A stretch of 64,000 nucleotides of DNA from Escherichia phage ECML-606-1: sequence record OL631484.1; one strand, written 5' to 3'. The translations under genes and the position numbers were made by a program. The notes under the pieces are model-generated. The model did not search any database. It was not told the origin of the DNA and worked only from the letters and a program-made list of their open reading frames with translations. The stretch's first letter is position 1; each line of letters opens with the position of its first letter. Below, one piece after another: positions 1 to 41,883 of this stretch.

Positions 1-593
1 CTGAGTTTGAGGCCGCTAACAAAGGCAATTACATCGTAAGCGCCGACATGTACGACCGGATCCGCTATATCCGCGACGCCGTTTGGTCAGAGCCTGAGTG
101 CGCTGGCTTGCTGGCGGGGATCATCCCTGAGCAATCCGTATATGGTTTGATGGATATCCCGACGCTGGAAGGTGACGAGCTCGTTACCGATGAAAATGGT
201 GTGGTGATGCAGGGGCTGGTTAAGTGCCAGTTTGACGGCATCGCGCCGGACTTCTCTTATGCGCTCGACCTGAAAAGCACGGAAGATGCCAGCGAGGAGG
301 GCTTTGCCCGCTCCATGGCTAACTACCGTTATGACGTGCAGGATGCCTGGTATGAAATGGTCAGCGAATCGGCCTTTAACCGCCACCCTGAGGAATTCAT
401 TTTCCTGTGTTATGAGAAAGAGCCGCCTTACGTGTCCGGCATTTACTGGTGTACAAAGACTGACCGTATGCTGGCATCACAGGCCGCACGCCGCGACTTT
501 GCGAAAATTGAGCATCATCGCCGCCTTGGGGTATGGCCTCAGTACAGCGCCACACCTCGCACTATCAGCCTGCCCGGCTGGTATCGTCGTTAA
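1..593 (+). CDS. PD-(D/E)XK superfamily nuclease (recombination exonuclease-like); 5' end lies outside the window
   Basis: Reading frame is open from base 1 with no in-frame stop before the first Met at 48; contains a D..(D/E)xK-type core (DFSYALDLKSTED) and a downstream QD/Y motif typical of RecB/Cas4-type nucleases; first gene of a + strand recombination cluster. Confidence 0.55.
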   Translation, partial: EFEAANKGNYIVSADMYDRIRYIRDAVWSEPECAGLLAGIIPEQSVYGLMDIPTLEGDELVTDENGVVMQGLVKCQFDGIAPDFSYALDLKSTEDASEEGFARSMANYRYDVQDAWYEMVSESAFNRHPEEFIFLCYEKEPPYVSGIYWCTKTDRMLASQAARRDFAKIEHHRRLGVWPQYSATPRTISLPGWYRR

Positions 594-611
594 TTTAAAA
601 GGAAGCCCATC

Positions 612-1946
612 ATGTATGTTACTCGCGTAAAAATTACCAACGTTCTCGGCATTGAGCACCTCGACTTTGAGCCGGGCAAAATTACTGAGATCTCCGGCCC
701 TAACGGCTCCGGTAAAACTTCCGTGCTGGAAACCATTCAGGCTGTGTTGAAAGGCGGTAACGATGCCACCCTGCTGCGTAAGGGTGCCGCCAAAGGTGAA
801 GCCGTTCTGGTACTGGATGACGGCACGGAGATCACCCGCGCCATTACCGCGACCACCAGCACGACGACCGTCCGCGACGCCGAAGGTAAAAAGCAGGCTC
901 GCCCTTCTGACATCCTGCGTAACCTGACCGACCTTTACAGCGCTAACCCGGTTGAATTCCTCAGGGCACCGAAAAAAGACCGTGTGCGCGTGCTGCTGGA
1001 GACTATGCCGCTCAAAGTGGATGCCGCAGCCATTGAGGAGATTACCGGAGAGCCGTGCAGCGCGACCGAAAACGCCCATGCGGTAGACGTGATCAACGGT
1101 CTGCATAAGGGCTACTACGACGAGCGCACTGGCGTTAACCGCGTCATTGACGAGAAGAAAAAAAGCATCAAGCAGCTGAAAGAGGCGGTGCCTGAGGCCC
1201 CGGCTGGCGTTGAGGGCAGCGAGGACGAGATCCGCATTGCCATTAAGACTGCCGACGATGCCCGCGACGCGGAAGAAAAGCGCATCAGCGAGAAGCTGAG
1301 CACCATTAAGACGCAGATGGCAGAAGAAGCCGGGAAGATTGATACCGCGCTGGCTGAGGCCATTGCCAAGCTCCAGCAGGAAGCGGAAGCCAACAAACAG
1401 GCGCTGCGTGACAAGCTGGCTGGCATTCAGGTTGCCGCTGAGAAACAGCGCACTAAAAACATCACCACCCACAGCGAGACCACGGCACCGCTGATCGCCG
1501 CGCTGAATCTGATTGTGGCGAACCGTGACGCGCACGCCAAACGTGAGCAGACGCTGAAAAACATCACCCAGCTGGAAACCGACCTCGAAAAATTCCAGGA
1601 TGATGCGCTGCGTCTGGATAAGATCATGGCTGGTCTGGAGGCGTACAAAGCGACGCTGCTGGCATCCCTGCCGATCCCCGGTCTGGAAGTCCGCGCGGGC
1701 GAGATCTTCCGTGATGATGTAGCTTTTGACCGTCTGAACACGGCTCAGCAGGTGAGCATCGCGGTGGAGATCGCCAAGCTACGCACGGGTGAGCTCGGCT
1801 GCTGCTGCGTGGATGGTCTTGAGTTGCTGGATCCTGCTGCGTATGAGGCATTCAAAGCGCAGGCCGTAGAATCGGGCCTCCAGATGTTTATTTCTAAGGT
1901 GACGGGCGAAGATTTTACTATTAATCCGCAGGGCACTGTAGCATAA
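612..1946 (+). CDS. SbcC/Rad50/RecF-like AAA ATPase
   Basis: Walker A GPNGSGKTS near the N-terminus, long charged coiled-coil middle, C-terminal D-loop-like ELGCCCVDGLELLD; RBS AAGGAAG about 6 nt upstream of ATG. Confidence 0.7.
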   Translation: MYVTRVKITNVLGIEHLDFEPGKITEISGPNGSGKTSVLETIQAVLKGGNDATLLRKGAAKGEAVLVLDDGTEITRAITATTSTTTVRDAEGKKQARPSDILRNLTDLYSANPVEFLRAPKKDRVRVLLETMPLKVDAAAIEEITGEPCSATENAHAVDVINGLHKGYYDERTGVNRVIDEKKKSIKQLKEAVPEAPAGVEGSEDEIRIAIKTADDARDAEEKRISEKLSTIKTQMAEEAGKIDTALAEAIAKLQQEAEANKQALRDKLAGIQVAAEKQRTKNITTHSETTAPLIAALNLIVANRDAHAKREQTLKNITQLETDLEKFQDDALRLDKIMAGLEAYKATLLASLPIPGLEVRAGEIFRDDVAFDRLNTAQQVSIAVEIAKLRTGELGCCCVDGLELLDPAAYEAFKAQAVESGLQMFISKVTGEDFTINPQGTVA

Positions 1947-1994
1947 TCATTTTTGCTTAAAGGCGGGGCGCAAGCCCCCTAACGGAGTCATATA

Positions 1995-3293
1995 ATGAGT
2001 AACCAACCTGTAAACCATACGCCGATTGTGCGCCAGCAGGATTCCGGCAATTTCAATATGACATCTGGCCCCGGTCTCCCGGCTGACCAGATGAATAGCA
2101 GCGTCGTTTCCATTGAGCAACAGCGTGCCATCGCAGAAGCTCAGGGCCAGCTGGTACTGGCGAAGCGCTTCCCGCGTAACTTCGCTCAGGCCATGGAGGA
2201 GATCCTGACCTCCTGCGCCTACATGGAGTTTGCGGAGGAAGCCTTTTACGCCCTTCCTCGTGGCGGTCAGACCGTGCGCGGCCCATCTATCCGTCTGGCT
2301 GAGGAGATCGCCCGCTGTTACGGTAACTTCCAGTACGGGCACCGTGAGCTCGCGCGTAATGAAGGCGAGAGCGTGGTGGAGGTGTACGCGTGGGATGTTG
2401 AGAAGAACAACCGCAGCACCCGCCAGATCACCATCCCTCACATCATGGACACGAGAAGCGGTGGCAAGAAGCTGACCGGGCAGAAAGAGATCACCGATTA
2501 CATTGCCAACGTGGCATCCAAGCAGATGCGTTCCCGTATTCTGGCCCTGCTGCCTAAGCCGCTAGTTGCCGCAGCCATCAAACGCTGTGAAATGACGCTG
2601 GCAGGCACTGGCGAGCAGACCATCCAGCAGCGTCTGGAGAAGATGCAGGGGATGTTTATCAAGTACGGCGTGACCGTCAAGATGCTGGAAAGCTATCTCA
2701 ATCACCCGCTTTCTGAAACCACCACCGACGAGATCACCGATTTGATCGCGGTGTACACCGCTATTAAAGACGGTGGCAACGCCAAAGACTTCTTTACCGT
2801 GTCCAGCGATCCGGTCGATGATGAGAGCAGCAAAAACGTCAAAGACATTATCGCCAAAAACAACGCCGCAGCTGCTAGCGCTGGCGCTGGCAATAAGCCT
2901 AACGTCAATACCCAGCCGACCGGGCAGCGACTGGTTAAGCCTGAGCCACAGCCTCAGGATAACGCACAGGCTGGCAATGACGCGCAGGCAGCAGCTCAGG
3001 AGACTAAGACTGCTACCAAAAGCGATAAGAAGAATGCAAGCGCTGGCACTGGCAAGAAAACAGCTGCAAACGCCAAAACCGAAGCCGCAGCAGCCCAGCA
3101 GCCTGAGGATAAAACTGGGGTAGATACTGCTGGCGCTACCGTTGATGGTCAGAGCGCTGGTGCTAATACGCCGCTGCCGGATTCTCACCCTGAGGAACCG
3201 CTGCCGCCGCAGGAAGAAGACGCGCCAAACGTTGACCTGACGCCGCCGCCGATGGATATCCCACCACCAGAAAGCGAAGACGATTATTTCTAA
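1995..3293 (+). CDS. ssDNA-binding / single-strand annealing-type protein with acidic C-terminal tail
   Basis: Folded N-terminal roughly 270 aa followed by a long low-complexity A/Q/K/P-rich linker and an acidic tail ending EEDAP...ESEDDYF (terminal aromatic, as in SSB/gp2.5-type proteins); placed between recombination ATPase and HU. Confidence 0.45.
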   Translation: MSNQPVNHTPIVRQQDSGNFNMTSGPGLPADQMNSSVVSIEQQRAIAEAQGQLVLAKRFPRNFAQAMEEILTSCAYMEFAEEAFYALPRGGQTVRGPSIRLAEEIARCYGNFQYGHRELARNEGESVVEVYAWDVEKNNRSTRQITIPHIMDTRSGGKKLTGQKEITDYIANVASKQMRSRILALLPKPLVAAAIKRCEMTLAGTGEQTIQQRLEKMQGMFIKYGVTVKMLESYLNHPLSETTTDEITDLIAVYTAIKDGGNAKDFFTVSSDPVDDESSKNVKDIIAKNNAAAASAGAGNKPNVNTQPTGQRLVKPEPQPQDNAQAGNDAQAAAQETKTATKSDKKNASAGTGKKTAANAKTEAAAAQQPEDKTGVDTAGATVDGQSAGANTPLPDSHPEEPLPPQEEDAPNVDLTPPPMDIPPPESEDDYF

Positions 3294-3329
3294 CAATCGG
3301 GCCTCCGGGCCCTTAACTGGAGCATTACC

Positions 3330-3605
3330 ATGCTGACTAAAGCACAAATCGTGGAACACATCGCCAAAGAGCAGAATATCACCAAGTCACAGGCTGAGCG
3401 CTTTTACAGCTGCTTCACCCAGCTGGTGACTGATACCCTGAAAGCTGGCGAAGAAGTAAAACTGAATGGCGTCGGCACGCTGAAAGTGGCTGCGCGTGCA
3501 GCTCGTACCGTGCGCAATCCGGCTACTGGTGCCCCTCTGGATATCCCGGAAACCCGTACCGTGAAGTTTTCTGTAACCAAAGACCTGAAAGACGCGCTGA
3601 ATTAA
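3330..3605 (+). CDS. HU/IHF-family histone-like DNA-binding protein
   Basis: 91 aa; N-terminal MLTKAQIVEHIA, GVGTLKV...RNPATG...FSV arm typical of HU/IHF (bacterial DNA-binding protein fold); followed by an intrinsic terminator. Confidence 0.85.
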   Translation: MLTKAQIVEHIAKEQNITKSQAERFYSCFTQLVTDTLKAGEEVKLNGVGTLKVAARAARTVRNPATGAPLDIPETRTVKFSVTKDLKDALN

Positions 3606-3636
3606 TCAGCACCCTATTACAAAAGGATTCCCTGAT

Positions 3637-3666
3637 AAAAGGCCCGTTACAGGGCCTTTTCTTTCT
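3637..3666 (+). terminator. Rho-independent terminator after HU gene
   Basis: GC hairpin GGCCC-gttaca-GGGCC followed by TTTTCTTTCT. Confidence 0.6.
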
Positions 3667-3676
3667 GGAGGTATCA

Positions 3677-4042
3677 ATGCTCAGGAAAGATGTTGTACAG
3701 GTGCTGGAAGGGCTGGCGAAGGATTTACCGCCCCCTCCGACGCCTGAGGAAGTCCGCAAGATCCGCGCCCGGCACGCTGGGCACATCAGCCCGGTAACGG
3801 TCTGCGAATGTGGGTGGAGTGACTTTTTTCACCGCATGGGGTGCCGGAACCAGACGGACTTTCTTGATAATACCGGGCATCAAATTAAATGGCTGTTCCT
3901 CGCGCACGATGGCCCGTTAGAAGGCAGCGGCAGCAGGATTATTGAACACGGCGTCCATTTTTGTTTCACGGGAGATAACGATGCAATTCACCCAGACTCA
4001 GGGGTCAGCGATCCAGCAGGTAGCGAAGTGGGCAAACAGTAA
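3677..4042 (+). CDS. hypothetical small protein (Cys/His-containing)
   Basis: ORF with strong RBS GGAGG 6 nt upstream; overlaps the annotated helicase start so either this ORF or the long helicase start (3942) is mis-assigned. Confidence 0.3.
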   Translation: MLRKDVVQVLEGLAKDLPPPPTPEEVRKIRARHAGHISPVTVCECGWSDFFHRMGCRNQTDFLDNTGHQIKWLFLAHDGPLEGSGSRIIEHGVHFCFTGDNDAIHPDSGVSDPAGSEVGKQ

Positions 4043-5093
4043 GGGCGGGCCTCAGGTCATGCGTCTGTTTGGCTACGCGGGAACTGGGAAAACGACCGTT
4101 GCCAAAGCTATCGCTGAGGAGGTCAAAGGCACCGTACTGTTTGGCGCGTTCACGGGGAAAGCCTCGCTGGTCATGCGTAAGAAGGGCTGCACCAATGCCA
4201 GCACGCTGCACAGCCTGATCTATATGCAGGATGAAGACGCGCCTCCGGGCCCGCATCCTAAGTTTATTCTTAACCCTGAAAGCTCCCTTCGTTACAGTCG
4301 CCTGCTGATTGTCGATGAATGCTCAATGGTCGGCCCTGATCTCGGCGCTGACCTCCTCAGCTTTCATCGTAAAATTCTGGTGCTGGGCGATCCGGCGCAG
4401 CTCCAGCCAGTCAACGGAGAGGGCTTTTTCTGCGCTCCCGGCGTCCAGCCTGACATCATGCTCACAGAGGTTCATCGTTCGGCGGCTGAATCGCCTATCA
4501 TCCGGTTGTCTATGGACTTGCGCGAGGGGCGTCGCCTCCAGTACGGCACCTATGGTGACAGCTGCATCATTGAGCGCAAGCACCTCGGACAGCGCCGCGT
4601 GCTGGAATCTGACATCGTGCTTTGCGGCATGAATAAAACCCGCATCAACCTCAATGAGAAGATCAGGAAGCTGAAAGGGGTTGAGAGCCCATTCCCGGTG
4701 GCTGGCGATAAGCTGATTTGCCTCAAAAACGACAAAGAGCTCCAGATGTACAACGGCTCGATCTGGACAGCGAAGCACGCCGCAGAGCCAGACCGGAACG
4801 GGCTGGTAATGCTCACAGTTGAGACCGAAGACGATCCGACCGTTGATTACCCGGTTGAGGTCATGGTACCGGAGAAATTCTTTCTGGGCCGCGAGAAAGA
4901 GCTCCACTGGACTGAGTTGCAGGGCATCCAGCAGATGTACTACGGCAACGCGATCACCTGCCATAAAGCGCAGGGCTCAGAGTGGGAGCATGTTGTGATA
5001 TTCGACGAGGGCGGGATCTTTAAACAGGATGCGTGGCGCTGGCGGTATACGGCGATTACACGCGCCAGCGAGCGGTTTACCTATATTATGTGA
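3942..5093 (+). CDS. Dda/RecD-like superfamily 1 DNA helicase
   Basis: Walker A GYAGTGKTT, Walker B LLIVDECSMV, C-terminal ITCHKAQGSEWEHV and YTAITRA motifs characteristic of RecD/Dda-type helicases; alternative start ATG at 3981 has a better RBS (GGGAGA). Confidence 0.8.
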   Translation: MNTASIFVSREITMQFTQTQGSAIQQVAKWANSKGGPQVMRLFGYAGTGKTTVAKAIAEEVKGTVLFGAFTGKASLVMRKKGCTNASTLHSLIYMQDEDAPPGPHPKFILNPESSLRYSRLLIVDECSMVGPDLGADLLSFHRKILVLGDPAQLQPVNGEGFFCAPGVQPDIMLTEVHRSAAESPIIRLSMDLREGRRLQYGTYGDSCIIERKHLGQRRVLESDIVLCGMNKTRINLNEKIRKLKGVESPFPVAGDKLICLKNDKELQMYNGSIWTAKHAAEPDRNGLVMLTVETEDDPTVDYPVEVMVPEKFFLGREKELHWTELQGIQQMYYGNAITCHKAQGSEWEHVVIFDEGGIFKQDAWRWRYTAITRASERFTYIM

Positions 5094-5357
5094 TTACATG
5101 CCTTGGCTGGCTATCCAGTCAGCCTTATTCTTGTCCCGCGTGGCACAATCGCCGTACATGCCTAACAGGTCAGAATATGCCTTATACAGCGTCCCCATGT
5201 TTTCTCCGGGGTCGAGGTCTACGGCAGGGCAGGTAACGCGCAGCGATTCGCTCATGTGTGGCTTGGCCTGATCAACGACAACCTGCGTCGCCGGGCGAGG
5301 CTTATCGCTACAACCAGCGATAAAAGTCAGGGCGGCCACCAGCATCAGTTTTTTCAT
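5094..5357 (-). CDS. o-spanin (Rz1-like outer-membrane lipoprotein)
   Basis: Signal peptide plus lipobox (LTFIAGC), short Pro/Cys-containing mature part; start overlaps stop of upstream i-spanin (ATGA); last gene of lysis cassette. Confidence 0.6.
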   Translation of the reverse strand: MKKLMLVAALTFIAGCSDKPRPATQVVVDQAKPHMSESLRVTCPAVDLDPGENMGTLYKAYSDLLGMYGDCATRDKNKADWIASQGM

Positions 5358-5815
5358 TTTGATGCCTCCGCAGGAACTACGCCGATGAATTGCGCGTTGA
5401 TATCCCGTGTCTTATTGAGCAGGATCTCACGACCGGACGCGGGGAGTTTACAGTCGGTATAGACTGTCTTTTCGGTCTCTTTCTGAATGGTGTTGTTGTA
5501 GGTCTTGTTGACGATCTGGATGTTGTTCAGCGCGGTGAGGAAGTTTTTCTCCACGATCTGAGCACGATGCTCAGCATCAATGCGCCGGGCCTCCTTCTCC
5601 TGTAAGGCTACGTTCTGAGCATCAATCAGGGCCTGACGTTCCCCCGCCATGCGTAGCGCTTCGGACTCCGTACCCGATTTAAACCCAAAATAAAGGCCGG
5701 AACCGCCAGCGCCCATCATTGCGATAAGGCAAGCAACAATTATCCATGGGACAGCTTTTGTTCTAACGACTGCGGCACCCGCAATCTCTACCGTTTCTTT
5801 CAGTGGATTACTCAT
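5354..5815 (-). CDS. i-spanin (Rz-like)
   Basis: N-terminal transmembrane segment followed by charged coiled-coil periplasmic domain; immediately upstream of lipoprotein gene. Confidence 0.6.
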   Translation of the reverse strand: MSNPLKETVEIAGAAVVRTKAVPWIIVACLIAMMGAGGSGLYFGFKSGTESEALRMAGERQALIDAQNVALQEKEARRIDAEHRAQIVEKNFLTALNNIQIVNKTYNNTIQKETEKTVYTDCKLPASGREILLNKTRDINAQFIGVVPAEASK

Positions 5816-6270
5816 TGGATTATCCTTAGGTTTACAGGTGGCAAAATAACCACCGTGTCACCGTTGATAATACCGTCACGGAAACTTACAGTGCTTCTGA
5901 TTCTGTAGTCTCCCACAGGAAGATCAGGCATAACGAATGCGTAAGATCTCAGGTGGCACCCACCATCTGTAAGAATCTCCAATGGAGGCAGAGGAAAAAC
6001 CGTGCCATCAGGTGCCACCAAAGCCGGAGAAGAATTGAGTTTTAACTTCCCCTTTACGCAATACAGCCGCTCAATTCTGACCTCATCACCAGCCATGAAA
6101 TTCATGGAGTTTTCGCCGTGAGCATCCAGCAGCTCAGTGCGCTTTACCGTGAATGTCGCTGTGTCGGTAAAGATGTAAAACCATCCCCCGGCAAGGAAAG
6201 CAGCCAGGACGAATAGGTATGTAAGGGCACCTACTAGCGCCCTCCTGTGCTTGTAATTTCTGGTCGTCAT
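5812..6270 (-). CDS. membrane protein of unknown function within lysis cassette
   Basis: N-terminal TM helix (LVGALTYLFVLAAFLAGGWFYIF), Cys-containing extracytoplasmic domain; between endolysin and spanins. Confidence 0.35.
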   Translation of the reverse strand: MTTRNYKHRRALVGALTYLFVLAAFLAGGWFYIFTDTATFTVKRTELLDAHGENSMNFMAGDEVRIERLYCVKGKLKLNSSPALVAPDGTVFPLPPLEILTDGGCHLRSYAFVMPDLPVGDYRIRSTVSFRDGIINGDTVVILPPVNLRIIQ

Positions 6271-6479
6271 TTAATGATCACTTTTGCCAGTACAGCCATC
6301 ATGACGGATGACAGGACAGCGGTTGCTAACCCGTAGGCGATCAGTTTTACAGGCGTAAATTCTTCACGGGTTATCTTTTCTTTGACCAGATTTTCCAGTG
6401 TCGAGACCTTCTCCTGTAACCGAACCACGTTCAGATTTAGCTCAGTAATTTTTTTGATGTCTTCGGAGTCTAGTGCCAT
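6267..6479 (-). CDS. small tail-anchored membrane protein (lysis-associated?)
   Basis: 70 aa, coiled-coil N-terminus and C-terminal TM helix (LIAYGLATAVLSSVMMAVLAKVII). Confidence 0.35.
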   Translation of the reverse strand: MALDSEDIKKITELNLNVVRLQEKVSTLENLVKEKITREEFTPVKLIAYGLATAVLSSVMMAVLAKVIIK

Positions 6480-6485
6480 CGCTCA

Positions 6486-7208
6486 TCACTCAAAGTATGG
6501 AATATATTTAGCACGGCGAACATGAATAATGTTCGATACGTACTCTCGGTTTATTCTGAAAAACGACTGACCATAGCCCTGCTTTGGGGTTTTGGATTTC
6601 AGGCTGTACCGCTCGACGTGGTTCCACCAGCGGGACGAATCGCAGCCCCGCGTGTTGGCGCACAGACGGCGATCCTGTAGCACTCCACCCTCTCCACCGT
6701 TGTAAGCACTCAACGTGAAGGCCAGCCGCTCATCAGCGTTAGCCGCTCCTTTCTGGCGGCTGAAAATGGCTTTATCCATTTCCACGATGGCTTTGAGTTG
6801 ATAGTCGGCGTCATATCGGTTCTCCCAGCTCCAGCCCATCAGGCTTTTGTGGGCCGCAGCCAGCTCGCTGATCTTGTCGAACCTGATAGAGCCATCTTTA
6901 TTGTATGCGCGGGTGAACTGCCCCAGACCGATCCCGTTCTCCCGGCTTGTTTTGAGCTCAGCACGCGGATCCCAGCATCGTGAATGTTTCAGGGTGATGC
7001 AGCTTTCCTGCTCAATCTGCCCCGCCAGAAACGATGGCATCGGGGCGTCGGGCCAGATGGTGCGCTGGGCCTGCACCAGATCCGGCAGATACTTTTCAGC
7101 CTTGGGCGGCACACTGGCGCGGGCATCCTCCAGTGAAACCACAAGGGCAATCACCAGCGCGAACCAGACAGCCGTTAACGCCCAGAGCCGTCTCATGCCT
7201 TGGCCCAC
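6486..7208 (-). CDS. endolysin, lytic transglycosylase (SLT-domain) with N-terminal signal/SAR segment
   Basis: SLT-type motifs EQESC, GIGLGQFT, SAYNGG; hydrophobic N-terminus LWALTAVWFALVIALVVSL; overlaps holin gene end. Confidence 0.8.
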   Translation of the reverse strand: MGQGMRRLWALTAVWFALVIALVVSLEDARASVPPKAEKYLPDLVQAQRTIWPDAPMPSFLAGQIEQESCITLKHSRCWDPRAELKTSRENGIGLGQFTRAYNKDGSIRFDKISELAAAHKSLMGWSWENRYDADYQLKAIVEMDKAIFSRQKGAANADERLAFTLSAYNGGEGGVLQDRRLCANTRGCDSSRWWNHVERYSLKSKTPKQGYGQSFFRINREYVSNIIHVRRAKYIPYFE

Positions 7209-7513
7209 GTAACGAGGGACAGGATAAGCAGCCCGACGAATAGCAGCAGCCCGGCGACGACCGTCCCGGATGCCCTGTTACCCCCGTGCGCCTCATTCAG
7301 CAGCCGGGTAAGCTCGATCTGCGGGAACATCATGCGGGAGACAATGACAGCCAGCCCGGTAATGATTGGCGCGACCAGCAGCCACTGCACGACTGTAATG
7401 GTCATGGCCTTATCAATAAACCAGAGGATGATAAAACAGGGGAGGATCATCAGTAGTGCGGTCTTATCGACCAGCGCCCGCAGGCGTTTGACGATGGATT
7501 GTAAAACAGTCAT
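7193..7513 (-). CDS. holin
   Basis: 106 aa with 2-3 predicted TM helices and charged C-terminus; directly upstream of endolysin. Confidence 0.55.
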   Translation of the reverse strand: MTVLQSIVKRLRALVDKTALLMILPCFIILWFIDKAMTITVVQWLLVAPIITGLAVIVSRMMFPQIELTRLLNEAHGGNRASGTVVAGLLLFVGLLILSLVTWAKA

Positions 7514-7543
7514 AAAAAAGCCCTCATACGTTGGTATGAGGGC
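7514..7543 (-). terminator. intrinsic terminator (minus strand) between tail fiber A and holin
   Basis: On minus strand GCCCTCATAC-caac-GTATGAGGGC hairpin followed by TTTTTT that abuts the holin ATG. Confidence 0.5.
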
Positions 7544-7570
7544 AGTTTGTCATCACGACCAGGACTGGTC

Positions 7571-9751
7571 TTATTTTTTGCCTTCGAGCGCCTCGAGACG
7601 GCGGGACAGCACCTGAATCGCAGCCAATGCGTCCAGCAGCAGGGCGTTACTATCCAGCTCTTTCATTTCGAACGGGGCACCATTGGCGTTGGGGTAATGG
7701 CGAGTTTTCACATACAACGGATCGACAGTTTCCGCTTGCTGTGCAATGACGCCACGACGCAACCGATGCTGCTCATCATTGTTATAAATGAAGCTCTTGA
7801 ATACCAGATCTTCAATTTTCGCCAATGATTCTTCGGGTGCATAATCATTAATATCGTGCTTTGCCCGTTCATCCGACGTCGCATTTTTCGTGAAGGTATA
7901 CGTTTCAGTGCCATCATTACGCATGTACTGAATATCGAAGGATTCAGAAACGAACAGCGCGGATCGTGAAGGGACTGAAGAAGCCCCCGTATTTAGATTC
8001 CAATCCCAGGTATTCGCAATGACTGCAACCGGGTGTGTGGCGTCCCCGTTTTTGGGGCAAAGGGCACCAAAAGAAATAAATCCACGATAGCCACCCCCAG
8101 CGGTACCTCCGCCACCGCCGACAATCGGGGCATAGGCTGAATACCCTGCGGCATTCCAAAAATTACCGGCATTGAAGGCAACCGATGACGGGGAGGCGTC
8201 AGTCCCGGTGCCAGCTGGTCGGTTATTGATTCTCAGCATCCCGCCGCTAAACGACATGCCATTCCCACGGACGTAATTTCCCTGCGCATCATACAGCGCA
8301 GTATTGAAATTCATTTGTGGATTCTCGTCGCCCCAGCGATAAGTGGTAATAACGCTCGTAGCCGCACGCGTAACGCCAGCTACGGTGTAGTTAGACTCTA
8401 CCGTACCACCATGAGCGATAAATCCAGTTTGCGGCTCTGCCGCATCGGCATTGATGACCGAAAAGGACGTCCCCGCAGCGATAAAAGAACCGGAGGCGCG
8501 GATAATCCAGATGCCCAACGCCGCGTTGGGACGAATTTCGTTTGTTGCAAATCTCCCATATGCAGCGTTACTTTTTGATGCGTCGAGTGTCAGCGTGTTA
8601 GACGCAGCGGTTGCAGAAGATGGGGTAATAGCACCATAGGGGGCTGCCGCACCAGAAAAGAGCGCTGTACCCACGCCGTTGCCGGGGTTGAAAGCACCCG
8701 CGCCCGCTGTCGATACCCCGCCAGTGATGTTGGGGGCGGCGTTTTCAATAATGTTACCAACACCATTCCCGAACAAGCGCCCTGAACTCCGCAAAAACAG
8801 ACCTTGTGGCGTCCAGCGCTGAGCGGGGTCATTCCACTGACTGTTTAAATCTGGGATGCGGAAAGTGGTCGAGCCATCACCCGGAGAATACATTCCTCGG
8901 TTGTTCCACTCCGCTCCGGGAACACCGCTGTTTTGCCAAGCCGCATCACTTGCAGCGGAGACAAGGATCCCAGCGTTTACCGCCGCCCACAGATCCGCCG
9001 TACTTGGGTCGGTACGACTGGCCAGCTGACCATCGGCAGCAATATAGCCTGCCGGGAGTTTCGCACGCGAGCCATTAAACCATTCGACCGCACCGATGAA
9101 GTTATTCATCACGCCATTCATGGATGCCCCGCCAGCGCCGCCAGAAGCCGCACGTAGCTGTTTCAGGGTTACGGCGTCATAATCACCAGCGGCATCGCCG
9201 CCTAAGCGCAGAGGCCCGCTGAGCGCGTTTAATGAGGTAATGTCATTGTTCGCACCAGATGCAGCCAGCCCGGTGATCGCCCCGGTCTTCCCGTTGACGC
9301 TGGTCACGTTGGTGCTGGTCAGCTCACGCCAGTTGCTCAGTACGCTCGGCGGCATCTGGGTGAGGATGAAGGTTTTACCCAGATCCTCACGGATAGCGAT
9401 ATCGCCGCGCTCACATTGCAGGCCCAGCATTGAAGCCTCGTTAGGCACCGGGAAGGTATCGATCACAGCGATAGACGGCATCAGTGAGCCGTCAATTTTC
9501 CCATCCGGGCCAGTTTGCACTACCGTAGACGGCAGGTTAGCTTTATTCAGCTTGCCGTTTGCGTCCAGCTTGGCGATGACATCGGACAGCATATCATCGG
9601 CAATCTTCCCGGTTGTCTGGTCGCGCGTAACGACCAGCACATCCAGCAGGTTTAACGTGTCGCGCAGGCGCTCCACGTCATCTTGAAGGAAGTTGTCAGT
9701 GTACGGCAGTAAAAGCCCCAGACGGGGCGTTTTCTGGTCTACTAAAGCCAT
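7571..9751 (-). CDS. tail fiber protein A with C-terminal intramolecular chaperone (peptidase S74-like) domain
   Basis: N-terminal TPRLGL..PY anchor motif, GDYDAVTLKQL collar motif, Gly-rich beta regions, GIWIIRASG motif, C-terminal SDERAKHDI...LEALEGKK resembling the autocleaving S74 chaperone domain. Confidence 0.7.
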   Translation of the reverse strand: MALVDQKTPRLGLLLPYTDNFLQDDVERLRDTLNLLDVLVVTRDQTTGKIADDMLSDVIAKLDANGKLNKANLPSTVVQTGPDGKIDGSLMPSIAVIDTFPVPNEASMLGLQCERGDIAIREDLGKTFILTQMPPSVLSNWRELTSTNVTSVNGKTGAITGLAASGANNDITSLNALSGPLRLGGDAAGDYDAVTLKQLRAASGGAGGASMNGVMNNFIGAVEWFNGSRAKLPAGYIAADGQLASRTDPSTADLWAAVNAGILVSAASDAAWQNSGVPGAEWNNRGMYSPGDGSTTFRIPDLNSQWNDPAQRWTPQGLFLRSSGRLFGNGVGNIIENAAPNITGGVSTAGAGAFNPGNGVGTALFSGAAAPYGAITPSSATAASNTLTLDASKSNAAYGRFATNEIRPNAALGIWIIRASGSFIAAGTSFSVINADAAEPQTGFIAHGGTVESNYTVAGVTRAATSVITTYRWGDENPQMNFNTALYDAQGNYVRGNGMSFSGGMLRINNRPAGTGTDASPSSVAFNAGNFWNAAGYSAYAPIVGGGGGTAGGGYRGFISFGALCPKNGDATHPVAVIANTWDWNLNTGASSVPSRSALFVSESFDIQYMRNDGTETYTFTKNATSDERAKHDINDYAPEESLAKIEDLVFKSFIYNNDEQHRLRRGVIAQQAETVDPLYVKTRHYPNANGAPFEMKELDSNALLLDALAAIQVLSRRLEALEGKK

Positions 9752-28147: not shown

Positions 28148-28176
28148 AAAAAAAGCCGCGAGGCGAGTCGCGGCAG
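28146..28176 (-). terminator. intrinsic terminator (hairpin flanked by A-run, functional on minus strand; possibly bidirectional)
   Basis: AAAAAAAAA-GCCGCGA-ggcga-GTCGCGGC; on minus strand hairpin followed by U9. Confidence 0.5.
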
Positions 28177-32869: not shown

Positions 32870-33559
32870 TTACAGGCCAGTGCCCAGCACTTTCGCCAGA
32901 ATCGCCGGATCAGGCTGATAACCGTTGCGCAGTGCGCAGTCGATCATGTTCAGCTGCACGCCAGTGATCTTGCCTTCGTTGTATGCAACGTTGGACTTAA
33001 TCATCAGGTCAGCGCCAGTGATCTGGGTATCTTCCGGCTGCTCAGTCGTTGCCTGAGTACCTGCCATGGATTTTGCCATCACGACAACCTGAGATTTACG
33101 CCCGGCACCCTGAGCGCCTGCATTAATCTGGTTCTGCTGCAATGATTTGATCAGCTCGCCCTGAGCCGCGATGGTGTTGCCCATGCGCTCCATCATCTGC
33201 ATCATCAGCGGGAAACCAGTATTCAGCGCTTCGTTGGTGCTGTTTACGGATTTTTGCAGGGTTTCCAGCACTTCGGTGGCGTCGATCATCTGCTCACCAT
33301 TTGCGCCTTCTACCGCAGGCAGAGATTTAGTCAGCTCGGTGTTTTCGCCCTGACCTTTGGTCTCGCCGTTCTCGTCTTTGTTTTCTTCGGTGTTTTCACC
33401 GGAACCAGCGCCAGCGCCTTCGCCGTTGTTGGCAGGGGATTCACCCGCAGCCGCCTGGATATTTTTGTCATCCTGAGCGGCTGGAATTGATTTCGCTAAA
33501 GTCTCTTTCTGCGAAGCATCGAGAGTCTGGAGCGTTTCCAGCAGATTTTTAAAGGACAT
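32870..33559 (-). CDS. scaffolding-like protein
   Basis: 229 aa, acidic, low-complexity Gly/Glu/Asn N-terminal region and helical C-terminus; located between portal-proximal genes and capsid. Confidence 0.45.
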   Translation of the reverse strand: MSFKNLLETLQTLDASQKETLAKSIPAAQDDKNIQAAAGESPANNGEGAGAGSGENTEENKDENGETKGQGENTELTKSLPAVEGANGEQMIDATEVLETLQKSVNSTNEALNTGFPLMMQMMERMGNTIAAQGELIKSLQQNQINAGAQGAGRKSQVVVMAKSMAGTQATTEQPEDTQITGADLMIKSNVAYNEGKITGVQLNMIDCALRNGYQPDPAILAKVLGTGL

Positions 33560-38751: not shown

Positions 38752-39267
38752 ATGAATATCTTTCGCCGCATCCTGAATAAAATCTTTGGCATCCCACCAG
38801 TGCCACCAGAGCCGAAGATCGAGCCGCCAAAGTTCGGCGGTGATTTCCCGCGCCCGGTCTCCGTCACCATGAAGGCTACCCAGACCGTCAAGCAGGATCC
38901 GATGGCTGCGGCGGTCGCCCGTGCAAAAAGGGACGCGGAGAAAACTGCCGTAAAAGGCAACGTCAGCAGCGCGAGCAGCAGCTCAACACAGCGCCCATTT
39001 ATATCCCTGTTAGATCCGACTCATCCGCTCTATCCTTTTAATGGCGTGCGGGATGATGATGCAGCCACTCAGCACCGCGTACAGCATCAGGACGCGACGA
39101 CGATCAGCGATACCACGCACCGACACGTCGCCAGCCATTCTGAGCCAGTGCGTAGCCATAGCTCGCACAGCAGCAGCCATTCAAGCCCAAGCTATGACCA
39201 TAGCCCCAGCCATGACAGCAGCCCATCCTATGACAGCTCACCGTCACACCACGACAGCAGCTGGTAA
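38752..39267 (+). CDS. small protein with His/Ser-rich low-complexity C-terminus
   Basis: RBS GAGGAG; Pro-rich N-terminus, C-terminal SHSSHSSSHSSPSYDHSPSHDSSPSYDSSPSHHDSS repeats. Confidence 0.4.
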   Translation: MNIFRRILNKIFGIPPVPPEPKIEPPKFGGDFPRPVSVTMKATQTVKQDPMAAAVARAKRDAEKTAVKGNVSSASSSSTQRPFISLLDPTHPLYPFNGVRDDDAATQHRVQHQDATTISDTTHRHVASHSEPVRSHSSHSSSHSSPSYDHSPSHDSSPSYDSSPSHHDSSW

Positions 39268-41883
39268 TTAATCGTCACCTTTCGAAATGAAGCCGGAGCA
39301 GCCAATATCCTCCGGCTTCACCTGCATCATGATCTCATGGCAGGATCTGGTCTCCGGGTCGTAGTTCACACAGCGCCCGCAAACATCCCCGCGATACTTC
39401 ACGTTGTTCACCTCATCCATGTAGCTCACCAGCGTCTGATCGACGCCGATATCCAGCGGGCTCAGTCGCTCGATCTTCACCTGCGGGGCATCCGGCAGAA
39501 TAAACGTACTGGTGCCATGGGCGCGACTCCATGCGACATCGCACAGCAGGTTTGCGTAGGAGAAGTGGGGATCGATGCCGATTTTCTTCACGCTGCGCTT
39601 GTACTGGTTCGTTTCCTCGTCCTTCTCAGCCACCAGCGCCGTTTTGGTGAAGTGCGTGAACATTACCGGGGCCACGGCTTCCACGCGCGTGACGCCCTTC
39701 TCACGAATCTCCTGCACCAACCCCTGAGGGTCTGGGATGAGGCAGATTGGCTCGTCGGCAGTGAAGCGGGCCATTGAGACCTGCATACACTTATACTGGT
39801 CAATGCGGACGGTGTAGCGATCCTGTTCGTTCTCGTCGGTGCGCACATCGGACTTGTCCAGCTTCATGCTGTCATTCCACTGGATCATGCCATCCGCCAC
39901 GGTGCCGAAGCTGTTACAGATGAATACCCGGCCTTTGTGACGGTTGGCGAAGCGCTTGGCGTCGTTGTAGTTCGGGTTGATTTCCACCACGCAGCAAGCC
40001 ACGCCGTACTGGTTCATCAGCTCGCTACAGCGGGCAAACGGATCCTCGCTGTAAATCATTTCGATGTGGACAATTGCTTGGTGGCCGGAGGGCAGTCGCT
40101 CCTTGATAACCACCACGTTAAACTGGCCCATCTGGTCAATACCCATGTAGCAGTTATCCGCGCGGGACTTCCACTGCACGCCAAAACGCAGGCCATGCTT
40201 AACGCAATTCGCCAGGTGTTCCAGCGTTACCGGAACCAGCGACGGATCGAGGAACGGCTTGCCCAGCTTACGGTTATAGAAGTTTTTCATATCCGTAGCG
40301 TTGTTGAAGGCGGAAATAATCTCGCCGGGGCTGATTGTCGGTGACAGGAACTGCGGGAAGTGCGCCGACCGGATGCACATTTCCCCTTCCTCATTCTCCG
40401 GCGCATCCGGGATCCATTCCCCGCGCTGCGTGTCCTCAATCCATCCTCCGCAGCTGTAGCAGACATATCGGTGGCGTCTGGTGTCCGGGTCGTACTTAAT
40501 GCACTGCGGGAAATAGTCATCCAGCGGTTTCTTTTCGAGGCAGTGCGGGCATTCGGTATGGAAACGGTACTGGGATCCCAGCTTGTACCAGTGGTGGATA
40601 TCGGAGTCGGGCCAGTTGGCGGTGGAGCCCATCAGGCTGTAACGGATCGGGGATGCAGATAGACGCTCGCGCGTTTTCTCCATCTGCTCCAGTGACATTT
40701 CCTGCACCTCATCGAAGCTCAGGACATCCATCGGGATGGATTCGGTAGTCGCGCGGCCCGATGTCCAGCTGAATACAAACATCGCCTCACCGATGCGACG
40801 GGTACGCACGTTACCCTCACCTTTCTTGCGACCGCCGCCTTTCTCATCGTCCTGCACCATCAGCGCATGTACCTCAGGTACGGTGCGCACAATCGGCATG
40901 AAGCGCTCGGAGGACTTGATCCCCGCCAGCGCGGCATCCGGCAAGAACATGCCGATAGTCATCGGCTGGAAGCGCAGGCCAAGGTAAATAACAGCGAGCA
41001 TTTCCATGACGGTAAAGCCCACCTGCGCACACTTCATCAGCACCAGCGTTTTGCGGTATGCCTCCTCGACGGTGCTGGGGATCTGGTCATAAATCCACGC
41101 CATCGCCGGGCGGTTGTCCAGCTTGAACGGGCGACCATCCACTTTGAGGCCCGTTTCGCCCAGCCGGATGCACCACTCCAGAAAGGTCTCGTTTGGCTTG
41201 AGGATTTTCTGCGAGGCGGTCAGGACAAAGGTCGTATCGAGGAATTCAGCATCGTAGCGCTGGCGCTTCTCATCCCCGGTCGTGTTGTCCATTTTCTCCA
41301 GGAATGCCGCGTCGAGATTATGGCGGTTGGTCTCGGTCGGCACGCGGCGTCGGAACCAGTCAGGATCCAGCTCGGCCTCCATCCACAGGCGATAAAAGTC
41401 GTGATTCTTCCCGTAGGCACCGGACAGGAACCATGCACTGCCGTGGTACTCGCGCAGGCACTCAGCCAGCGTGTCACCCCAGATCTGCATGAAGTTGTAA
41501 ATCTCGCGCACGTCATCAATGATCATCAGGCCATACTGCCCATTAACCTCTTTCAGGCTGTCAGCCGCGTAAAGGTCAATGTACTGGCCCGATAGCAGCG
41601 TGATGCGCCTGCTGGTTGAGCTCTTGATGAGGGGATCGATGGCCTGTACGATCCGCGTGCGAACCTCCATAAGGTCTTTGTACGTAGCGCTCATCCACAT
41701 CGCCGGGGCAGGGTTATTCATGATGCCCTGTTTCCCAGCCACCAGCGCCTCTATGCCAAGCGTTGTTTTTCCTGCCTTCTCGCCCATGGCAATAACGTTA
41801 AAACGCGCCGCACGGTCGATACAGACCTGCAACGCGTCATTGAGAATGGGCAGCTTAATTTTAACGGTCTTTTGGCGTGCCAT
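39268..41883 (-). CDS. terminase large subunit, GpA (lambda A)-like, with about 250-aa N-terminal P-loop extension
   Basis: Internal KCAQVGFT (cf. lambda gpA KSARVGYS), zinc-finger-like FHTECPHC...YVCYSCGG, C-terminal nuclease-like region; additional N-terminal Walker A GEKAGKTT and Walker B-like LMIIDD. Confidence 0.75.
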   Translation of the reverse strand: MARQKTVKIKLPILNDALQVCIDRAARFNVIAMGEKAGKTTLGIEALVAGKQGIMNNPAPAMWMSATYKDLMEVRTRIVQAIDPLIKSSTSRRITLLSGQYIDLYAADSLKEVNGQYGLMIIDDVREIYNFMQIWGDTLAECLREYHGSAWFLSGAYGKNHDFYRLWMEAELDPDWFRRRVPTETNRHNLDAAFLEKMDNTTGDEKRQRYDAEFLDTTFVLTASQKILKPNETFLEWCIRLGETGLKVDGRPFKLDNRPAMAWIYDQIPSTVEEAYRKTLVLMKCAQVGFTVMEMLAVIYLGLRFQPMTIGMFLPDAALAGIKSSERFMPIVRTVPEVHALMVQDDEKGGGRKKGEGNVRTRRIGEAMFVFSWTSGRATTESIPMDVLSFDEVQEMSLEQMEKTRERLSASPIRYSLMGSTANWPDSDIHHWYKLGSQYRFHTECPHCLEKKPLDDYFPQCIKYDPDTRRHRYVCYSCGGWIEDTQRGEWIPDAPENEEGEMCIRSAHFPQFLSPTISPGEIISAFNNATDMKNFYNRKLGKPFLDPSLVPVTLEHLANCVKHGLRFGVQWKSRADNCYMGIDQMGQFNVVVIKERLPSGHQAIVHIEMIYSEDPFARCSELMNQYGVACCVVEINPNYNDAKRFANRHKGRVFICNSFGTVADGMIQWNDSMKLDKSDVRTDENEQDRYTVRIDQYKCMQVSMARFTADEPICLIPDPQGLVQEIREKGVTRVEAVAPVMFTHFTKTALVAEKDEETNQYKRSVKKIGIDPHFSYANLLCDVAWSRAHGTSTFILPDAPQVKIERLSPLDIGVDQTLVSYMDEVNNVKYRGDVCGRCVNYDPETRSCHEIMMQVKPEDIGCSGFISKGDD

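Follow-up and report, generated by a model that had tools for sequence, protein, structure and literature searches.

How can two transcription units end where their last genes meet tail-to-tail and not a single base of intergenic DNA is left between them? Here, we analysed this question for the helicase/o-spanin junction of Escherichia phage ECML-606-1 in a stretch of 64,000 nucleotides (sequence record OL631484.1; referred to as the window). In the window, the gene of an SF1 RecD/Dda-like DNA helicase (3981..5093, + strand), with which a + strand unit of six genes ends, meets the gene of the o-spanin (5094..5357, − strand), the predicted Rz1-like outer-membrane lipoprotein of a two-component spanin, which closes the − strand lysis cassette. 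We read this locus, with a probability of roughly 50%, as a tail-to-tail boundary of the two units with asymmetric termination, at which a hairpin embedded in the o-spanin gene probably ends the helicase transcript while the − strand transcript would be ended by other means.

The geometry of the junction can be read directly from the sequence. The helicase stop codon TGA (5091-5093, + strand) is adjoined by the o-spanin stop codon TAA (5094-5096, − strand; TTA on the + strand), such that the + strand reads ...TATATTATG TGA/TTA CATGCC... or, divided into triplets, TAT ATT ATG TGA/TTA CAT GCC. The first-pass annotation of this DNA had described stop codons that abut with zero spacer, a + strand module meeting a − strand lysis cassette tail-to-tail, and the lack of an intergenic terminator. 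The layout is right, and the abutment is confirmed by the sequence, by the list of open reading frames (ORFs; 3942..5093 on the + strand and 5094..5357 on the − strand, spacer 0 nt) and by the annotation of Enterobacter phage phiT5282EW, in which recD2 (573..1685, +) is followed immediately by the next coding sequence (1686..1949, −). That there is no intergenic terminator is true but trivial, because there is no intergenic DNA.

The zero spacer was found to be kept in all nine relatives in which the helicase neighbours the o-spanin, down to an o-spanin identity of 47%. The identity to the window is ~99-100% in phiT5282EW and two IMG/VR contigs (L001, L003 and L004), 82% in L023, 62% in Yersinia phage fHe-Yen8-01 (L002), 59% in L024, 57% in L027, 53% in L028, 51% in L008/L022 and 47% in L030. 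The stop codons vary among these relatives (TGA, TAA or TAG for the helicase; TAA, TAG or TGA for the o-spanin), and methionine followed by a stop ends both proteins in every relative, the helicase with ...FT(Y/L/M)IM and the o-spanin with ...ASQGM (...FTYIM and ...WIASQGM in the window). In more distant relatives, other neighbours come with other junctions: in L025 and L026 the o-spanin gene overlaps by 7 nt with a small gene that is followed by an integrase gene, and in L029 a 7-nt gap separates it from another small ORF, at which the contig ends. Distant helicase homologues (≤49% identity, L009-L019) were set aside as uninformative for the junction since co-directional or unrelated genes follow them. 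The simplest reading of the conserved abutment is inherited compaction, in which deletion pressure would have stripped away all spacer down to two constrained C-termini.

But, how unusual is a spacer of zero? The oddity implied by the first-pass annotation turned out to be overstated, as it is common for convergent genes to abut or overlap: at the four convergent junctions of this genome, the spacer measures 0, ~110, 0 (TAATTA at 39265-39270) and 26 nt, i.e. two of four abut, and 75 overlapping convergent gene pairs are found in E. coli K-12 (PMC4161906). At the second abutting pair of the window (TAA/TTA, 39265-39270), a + strand ORF (38752..39267), which is rich in SPSYD/SPSHD repeats and located downstream of tRNA-Asn, meets a − strand ORF (39268..41883). 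Within the last ~17 codons of the latter lies a hairpin with an 11-bp stem (GAAGCCGGAGG...CCTCCGGCTTC, 39288-39320), with a z-score of about −3 on both strands and no clear U-tract. A second zero spacer is also present in the Yersinia relative (L005, 9980/9981), where a stable hairpin is located 25-65 nt into the opposing coding sequence. The orthologous pair in the window (28147/28259) has a ~110-nt spacer with a canonical − strand terminator (28174..28155, then T9), which shows that the clade has both gained and lost spacers and terminators.

A candidate terminator inside the o-spanin gene

If no spacer is left, 3'-end formation would have to use protein-coding sequence, and we found a candidate element for this purpose on the + strand. 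Its stem, GGCUGGCU-AUCC-AGUCAGCC (5105..5124, + strand), starts 12 nt past the helicase TGA in the sense strand, comprises 8 bp (5 G-C pairs and 1 G-U pair among them) with a 4-nt loop and covers the o-spanin codons (K)ADWIAS(Q). It is followed by the U-rich tail UUAUUCUUGU (5125..5134, + strand; 7 U of 10), which corresponds to the o-spanin codons K-N-K read in reverse. Intrinsic terminators have a GC-rich stem of at least 5 bp and a loop of 3-8 nt, and the stem and loop found here fall within these bounds. A consensus scan returned the same site as terminator-like (GGCTGGCTATCCAGTCAGCC then TTATTCTTGT). In the + strand RNA, the hairpin has a predicted energy of −12.9 kcal/mol (z −3.0), and only 1 of 200 shuffled sequences was as stable. 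In the − strand RNA, the G:U pair becomes an A·C mismatch (−8.7 kcal/mol, z −1.3), and for this reason the structure favours the helicase-sense RNA. Counting both strands (128 kb), our custom scan yielded 28 hairpin sites with T-tail of this class, of which 18 were at least as stable as the one at the junction; from these numbers, the chance of finding such a site within 30 nt past a given stop codon on the right strand is about 0.004-0.007. The phage itself uses hairpin/U terminators, as at least nine − strand sites with uninterrupted U-runs sit in intergenic gaps after − strand genes.

Sequence comparison with the Yersinia phage fHe-Yen8-01 points in the same direction. A 27-nt block over the stem (CCTTGGCTGGCTATCCAGTCAGCCTTA) is 100% identical in both phages compared to 68% overall identity. 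In a codon alignment, only 40-42% of the identical degenerate residues share their codon, while the eight codons of KADWIASQ are all identical, a length that no other run in the six genes reaches (the next longest comprises five codons and lies in the endolysin gene); for the run of eight, a rough probability of 0.4^7 = 0.002 can be given. We could rule out that the hairpin is forced by the peptide: L025 and L029, which have a different convergent neighbour, encode KADWIASQG, and L026 encodes KADWITSQG, in each case with other codons and without the stem. Within the hairpin, L004 and L023 differ from the window in the loop only and keep the stem.

We thus suggest that a + strand polymerase leaving the helicase gene would transcribe the 8-bp GC-rich hairpin (5105-5124) and the U-rich tract (5125-5134), which the last 13 o-spanin codons accommodate through the choice of synonymous and Lys/Asn codons. 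Together, the two would serve as an intrinsic terminator of moderate strength for the helicase unit and stabilise its 3' end. The first-pass annotation had left two options for the junction, namely termination signals inside coding sequence or collision of the convergent polymerases. This was a reasonable choice to offer, and the first option gains a concrete candidate in the hairpin and tail within the o-spanin coding sequence; it omitted such an embedded hairpin as well as Rho-dependent termination of untranslated antisense RNA, which is discussed below.

Several observations weigh against a terminator at this site. A genome-wide empirical control showed that 7% of the 60-nt windows of the genome hold a local hairpin at least as stable as this one and that its 60-nt minimum free energy lies at the 32nd percentile, after which we dropped stability as stand-alone evidence; the weight is carried by the combination of the stem with the tail, its position and the synonymous conservation. 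The U-tract is interrupted (UUAUUCUUG), compared to runs of U4-U9 in the intergenic terminators of the genome. Among the relatives, the tail reads UUAUUUUUGU/AU in L004 and L023 and UUACUCUUAU in the Yersinia phage, and it is lost in L024, L027 and L028 (UUGGCCCCGU), which keep a 6-7-bp stem; in L008 and L030 the hairpin is weak and shifted (−6.6 to −8.3 kcal/mol, z about 0). Taken together, the U-tract is missing or the stem decayed in five of the nine helicase-type relatives. Compensatory changes in the stem at 5105-5124 were seen in none of the eight pairs, and divergent lineages simply lose pairs.

These very observations, i.e. a hairpin that is unexceptional in the genome-wide distribution (7th percentile), a stem without covariation and the loss of tail or stem in most of the helicase-type relatives, speak for neutral compaction without any dedicated termination. 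The abutment would then be an inherited state of minimal length, the hairpin would merely reflect codon choice or common descent, transcripts would read through in both directions, and the resulting antisense RNAs would be tolerated or avoided by expression of the two units at different times. The recurrence of zero-spacer convergent pairs in these genomes and the many overlapping pairs of E. coli fit such a scenario, and a temporal separation is compatible with the distribution of promoter-like elements: the motif GTCGTGAY, described below, precedes the holin and is absent from the + strand helicase unit, and in phiT5282EW a weak sigma-70-like site (TTGCAG-17-TAGAAT) was found upstream of the first gene of the + unit. 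Three findings speak against neutral compaction, however: the joint occurrence of a stem and a U-rich tail on the strand and at the very position where a terminator would be expected (p about 0.005), an identity with the Yersinia phage at synonymous sites that is confined to the hairpin block, and the same peptide being encoded without a hairpin where the o-spanin has another neighbour. We regard neutral compaction as doubtful, with odds clearly below even.

Possible antisense transcription and the far end of the lysis cassette

What happens to polymerases arriving from the opposite direction? Beyond the o-spanin stop codon, a − strand polymerase would meet no hairpin/U signal, since neither the consensus scan nor the custom scan found one on the − strand between 5093 and 3243. 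Two other candidates were rejected. The one reasonable − strand stem in the 3' end of the helicase gene (~5036-5069, z −1.2) lacks a U-tract next to it, and the Yersinia sequence does not preserve the complementarity of its arms; a promoter-like site on the − strand (5113..5085, TAGCCA-17-CATAAT) is one of three such matches in the region compared to 3.5 expected and was treated as chance. The hairpin at 5105-5124 is not a canonical bidirectional terminator either, because it lacks the symmetry of a 5' A-tract and a 3' U-tract that defines such elements; the tail on its − strand side reads AAGGCAUGUA / AAGGCAUGUAAU.

The − strand RNA is untranslated from the o-spanin stop codon onwards and at once becomes rich in C and poor in G. 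A stretch with the composition of a Rho utilisation (rut) site spans 4974..5058 (− strand; C ~38-40%, G ~15-18%), and the C/G ratio reaches 2.3-2.6 between 35 and 120 nt beyond the o-spanin stop, compared to 1.35-1.47 at the 90th-95th percentile; it was at least 2.0 in eight of eight lineages tested. Prediction of rut sites relies on C>G over ~78 nt of untranslated RNA (PMC6407284), and about 80 nt of untranslated − strand RNA with C>G are present here. Rho and NusG are known to terminate untranslated antisense RNA (PMC11551753). Rho-dependent termination is therefore, as judged from the sequence, the likeliest fate of the − strand transcript, which would most likely be released by host Rho, with head-on collision contributing when both units are active. 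It speaks against this part of our interpretation that the argument for Rho is one of composition and that the G-rich codons of the helicase (for W, R, G and E) would give the same composition anyway.

Collision could also play the leading part. In that case, the hairpin would mainly serve as a pause element, and head-on followed by rear-end collisions would release the polymerases in both directions. A model in which convergent units need a hairpin where they overlap has been described (bioRxiv 10.1101/2022.10.23.513370), and convergent gene pairs of phages were suggested to behave likewise (PMC10204088). The hairpin at the junction is no more than 30 nt away from the boundary and is able to form in the RNA of either strand, and no other signal was found on the − strand. 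On that strand, however, the hairpin is weak (−8.7 kcal/mol, z −1.3) and precedes the o-spanin stop codon, which means that translation would open it. Such a mechanism would furthermore require both units to be highly active at the same time, and the hairpin with U6 at 7520-7543 may already reduce the − strand flux. We thus consider a collision-driven bidirectional termination improbable and return to asymmetric termination with an embedded + strand terminator.

At the far end of the lysis cassette, we found a small terminator-like + strand hairpin, GACCA-GGAC-UGGUC followed by UUAUUUUUUG (DNA tail TTATTTTTTG; 7557..7580, + strand). Its stem covaries, with GACCA/TGGTC in the window, GACTG/CAGTC in L008 and L024, and GACTC/GGGTC in L030. 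As no + strand gene is annotated between the helicase and this element, its simplest role would be that of a back-stop for helicase-unit read-through, with + strand polymerases that leak past the junction crossing the lysis cassette in antisense direction and stopping at 7557-7580. Such a role would imply some leakage through the embedded terminator. The presence of a covarying hairpin of this kind also counts against efficient termination at the junction, as it suggests substantial + strand read-through.

One could go a step further and assign a function to the leakage. Helicase-unit RNA crossing the spanin, endolysin and holin genes up to 7557-7580 would then dampen or delay the lysis genes until the + unit is shut off. 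The compensatory changes that helicase-type lineages show in a + strand hairpin with T-rich tail at the holin end of the cassette, the lack of an annotated + strand gene on the way and an embedded terminator that is weak or absent in several lineages would all fit such a regulation by antisense RNA. On the other hand, the GTCGTGAT motif overlaps with the element at 7557-7580, which may have a different function, and antisense control of lysis timing is not established for this clade. We give this explanation little credence, and even less to its strictest form, in which the junction with a deliberately leaky coding-embedded terminator is a lysis-timing device that has the covarying terminator at 7557-7580 as its far end. 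Asymmetric termination, with the distal hairpin as a back-stop, remains the reading that we favour.

A second, strong hairpin adjoins the holin start codon on the − strand: GCCCUCAUAC-CAAC-GUAUGAGGGC (DNA GCCCTCATAC-CAAC-GTATGAGGGC), then U6 (7520..7543, − strand). The tail-fibre gene lies on one side of it and the holin gene, with its ATG at 7513-7511, on the other; the 3' arm of the hairpin contains GAGGG, a likely Shine-Dalgarno sequence 8 nt before this ATG. A strong hairpin is present at the holin start in every relative, and it is the structure rather than the sequence that is conserved, since L025, L026 and L029 keep a hairpin with a wholly different sequence and no U-tract. This points to a 5' stem-loop or to sequestration of the ribosome-binding site rather than to termination. 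The hairpin with its U6 may nevertheless lower the − strand flux toward the junction.

Upstream of the holin, we also noticed the motif GTCGTGAY, often extended to GTCGTGAY-GGCA-N-AAT, of which the window holds 10 copies compared to 3.7 expected. Nine copies lie on the late-gene (−) strand (53765, 37674, 37666, 34491, 33085, 27270, 16326, 13769 and 7559), and they precede the start codons of structural genes and of the holin gene by 14-45 nt. The Yersinia phage has eight copies compared to 1.6 expected (L005 copies at 529, 3726, 10874, 21889, 24377 and 30137). Accordingly, GTCGTGAY is a candidate for a phage-specific late promoter or regulatory element. The copy GTCGTGAT-GGCAAAAT at 33078-33085 is located inside an ORF (32870..33559, − strand), 10 nt before an internal ATG that looks in-frame, and could mark a nested start, e.g. 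of a scaffold- or protease-type internal product. The GTCGTGAT motif also precedes a single ORF of 2257 aa (46959-53732, − strand), which is annotated as hypothetical in phiT5282EW.

Flanking genes and phage relatives

The labels that the first-pass annotation had given to the two genes at the junction, helicase and o-spanin closing a lysis cassette, were borne out by Pfam and PHROG matches, the lipobox and the overlap with the i-spanin gene. The helicase matches the Pfam families AAA_30 (2.7e-23, 83.2 bits; cut-off 27) and UvrD_C_2 (4.6e-12, 46 bits; cut-off 27.4), so that both the P-loop ATPase core, with GYAGTGKT as Walker A motif, and a UvrD-like C-terminal domain exceed the curated cut-offs; it also matches phrog_325 (Dda-like helicase; 5.4e-98). 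Its start at 3981 was taken from the phiT5282EW annotation and is uncertain: this ATG overlaps the upstream 121-aa ORF (3677..4042) by 62 nt, and the Yersinia orthologue is annotated 26 codons shorter. The other genes of the six-gene + strand unit are a recE-like gene, which is cut by the window start and ends at 593, two genes at 612-1946 and 1995-3293, an HU-like gene (3330-3605) and the 121-aa ORF (3677-4042). Several orthologues of this unit are annotated as particle-associated in Yersinia phage fHe-Yen8-01.

The o-spanin comprises 87 aa and starts with a lipoprotein signal peptide whose lipobox ends in cysteine (MKKLMLVAALTFIAG/C; lipobox LTFIAG/C), in which G15 and C16 are invariant in the alignment of homologues, 39 of which were found. 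A PHROG profile search assigned it to phrog_456 ("Rz-like spanin", 3.5e-7). No Pfam family matched the o-spanin of the window; PF23793 (LysC) was a weak match of homologues. The end of the i-spanin gene (5354..5815, − strand; phrog_1152, 2.9e-7) overlaps the o-spanin start by 4 nt; it encodes a type II membrane protein with an N-terminal transmembrane segment and a periplasmic coiled coil. The cassette starts with the holin (7193..7513, − strand; phrog_8226, 6.6e-26) and the endolysin (6486..7196, − strand; phrog_669, 1.3e-28; start from the phiT5282EW annotation). Two small genes for proteins of 152 aa and 70 aa with one hydrophobic segment each (5812..6479, − strand) lie between the endolysin and the i-spanin. 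Both proteins were without match in Pfam and PHROG; their genes occur in most relatives, with the 152-aa gene lacking a full-length counterpart in Yersinia L002 and L030. An Rfam search at E≤1 over 3000-8000 returned no known RNA family.

The window is part of a ~95-kb myophage of Enterobacteriaceae and is 96.7-99.8% identical to Enterobacter phage phiT5282EW (PQ352032, 95.5 kb, circular). An origin from a plasmid or phage-plasmid was rejected, as no PLSDB match was obtained and an o-spanin profile search of genome contigs was also empty. The clade is unstudied; a literature search for fHe-Yen8-01 and phiT5282EW retrieved no paper on either phage. In L025 and L026, ~93-kb contigs with o-spanins that are 43-51% identical, a tyrosine integrase gene (3059-4351 and 3066-4349, respectively) is located two genes from the lysis cassette, where it replaces the helicase unit in position. 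The clade thus apparently includes temperate members.

Comparison with known systems

Why should such a junction matter? It opens no new question in transcription biology, and its value lies mostly in annotation and engineering. Where intergenic DNA is squeezed out, synonymous sites of the gene on the other strand can accommodate 3'-end signals, and recoding or refactoring the o-spanin C-terminus could change both the termination of the helicase unit and the antisense load on the lysis genes. With one 50-nt element, two orientations and natural variants of stem and tail, the junction is furthermore a small and clean test case for terminator versus coding constraint.

All components of the junction are of known kinds, namely abutting convergent genes, terminators inside a convergent gene and silencing of antisense RNA by Rho. 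As in the three predicted cases of terminators inside a convergent gene of B. cereus (PMC5381666), a hairpin with U-tract lies in the coding sequence of the opposite strand; those are found in a Gram-positive chromosome, whereas the candidate described here has its stem in the conserved C-terminal peptide of a phage spanin and an interrupted U-tract. The bidirectional terminator T50 of phage LUZ7 (PMC10204088) likewise serves a convergent gene pair with a single hairpin at the boundary, but it lies between the genes, with an A-tract on one side and a U-tract on the other, while the hairpin of the helicase/o-spanin junction has a U-rich tail on one side only and is located within coding sequence. 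Convergent units with a hairpin at their boundary are also shared with the collision-driven termination at E. coli ynaJ-uspE (Ju 2019; Wang 2023; bioRxiv 10.1101/2022.10.23.513370). The hairpin of the collision model need not be a full intrinsic terminator, and the one analysed here is translated on one strand; the likeness is one of sequence. With regard to the − strand, the resemblance to antisense silencing by Rho and NusG (PMC11551753; PMC6407284) consists in an RNA that is no longer translated from the stop codon onwards and that, 35-120 nt further on, is rich in C and poor in G, a likeness of composition. The overlapping and abutting convergent pairs of E. coli K-12 (PMC4161906) finally share the tail-to-tail arrangement without intergenic DNA, a boundary set by the positions of the stop codons and evolutionary stability; at the junction of the helicase and o-spanin genes, the spacer is exactly zero and has been kept in nine phage lineages with all three stop codons being interchangeable.

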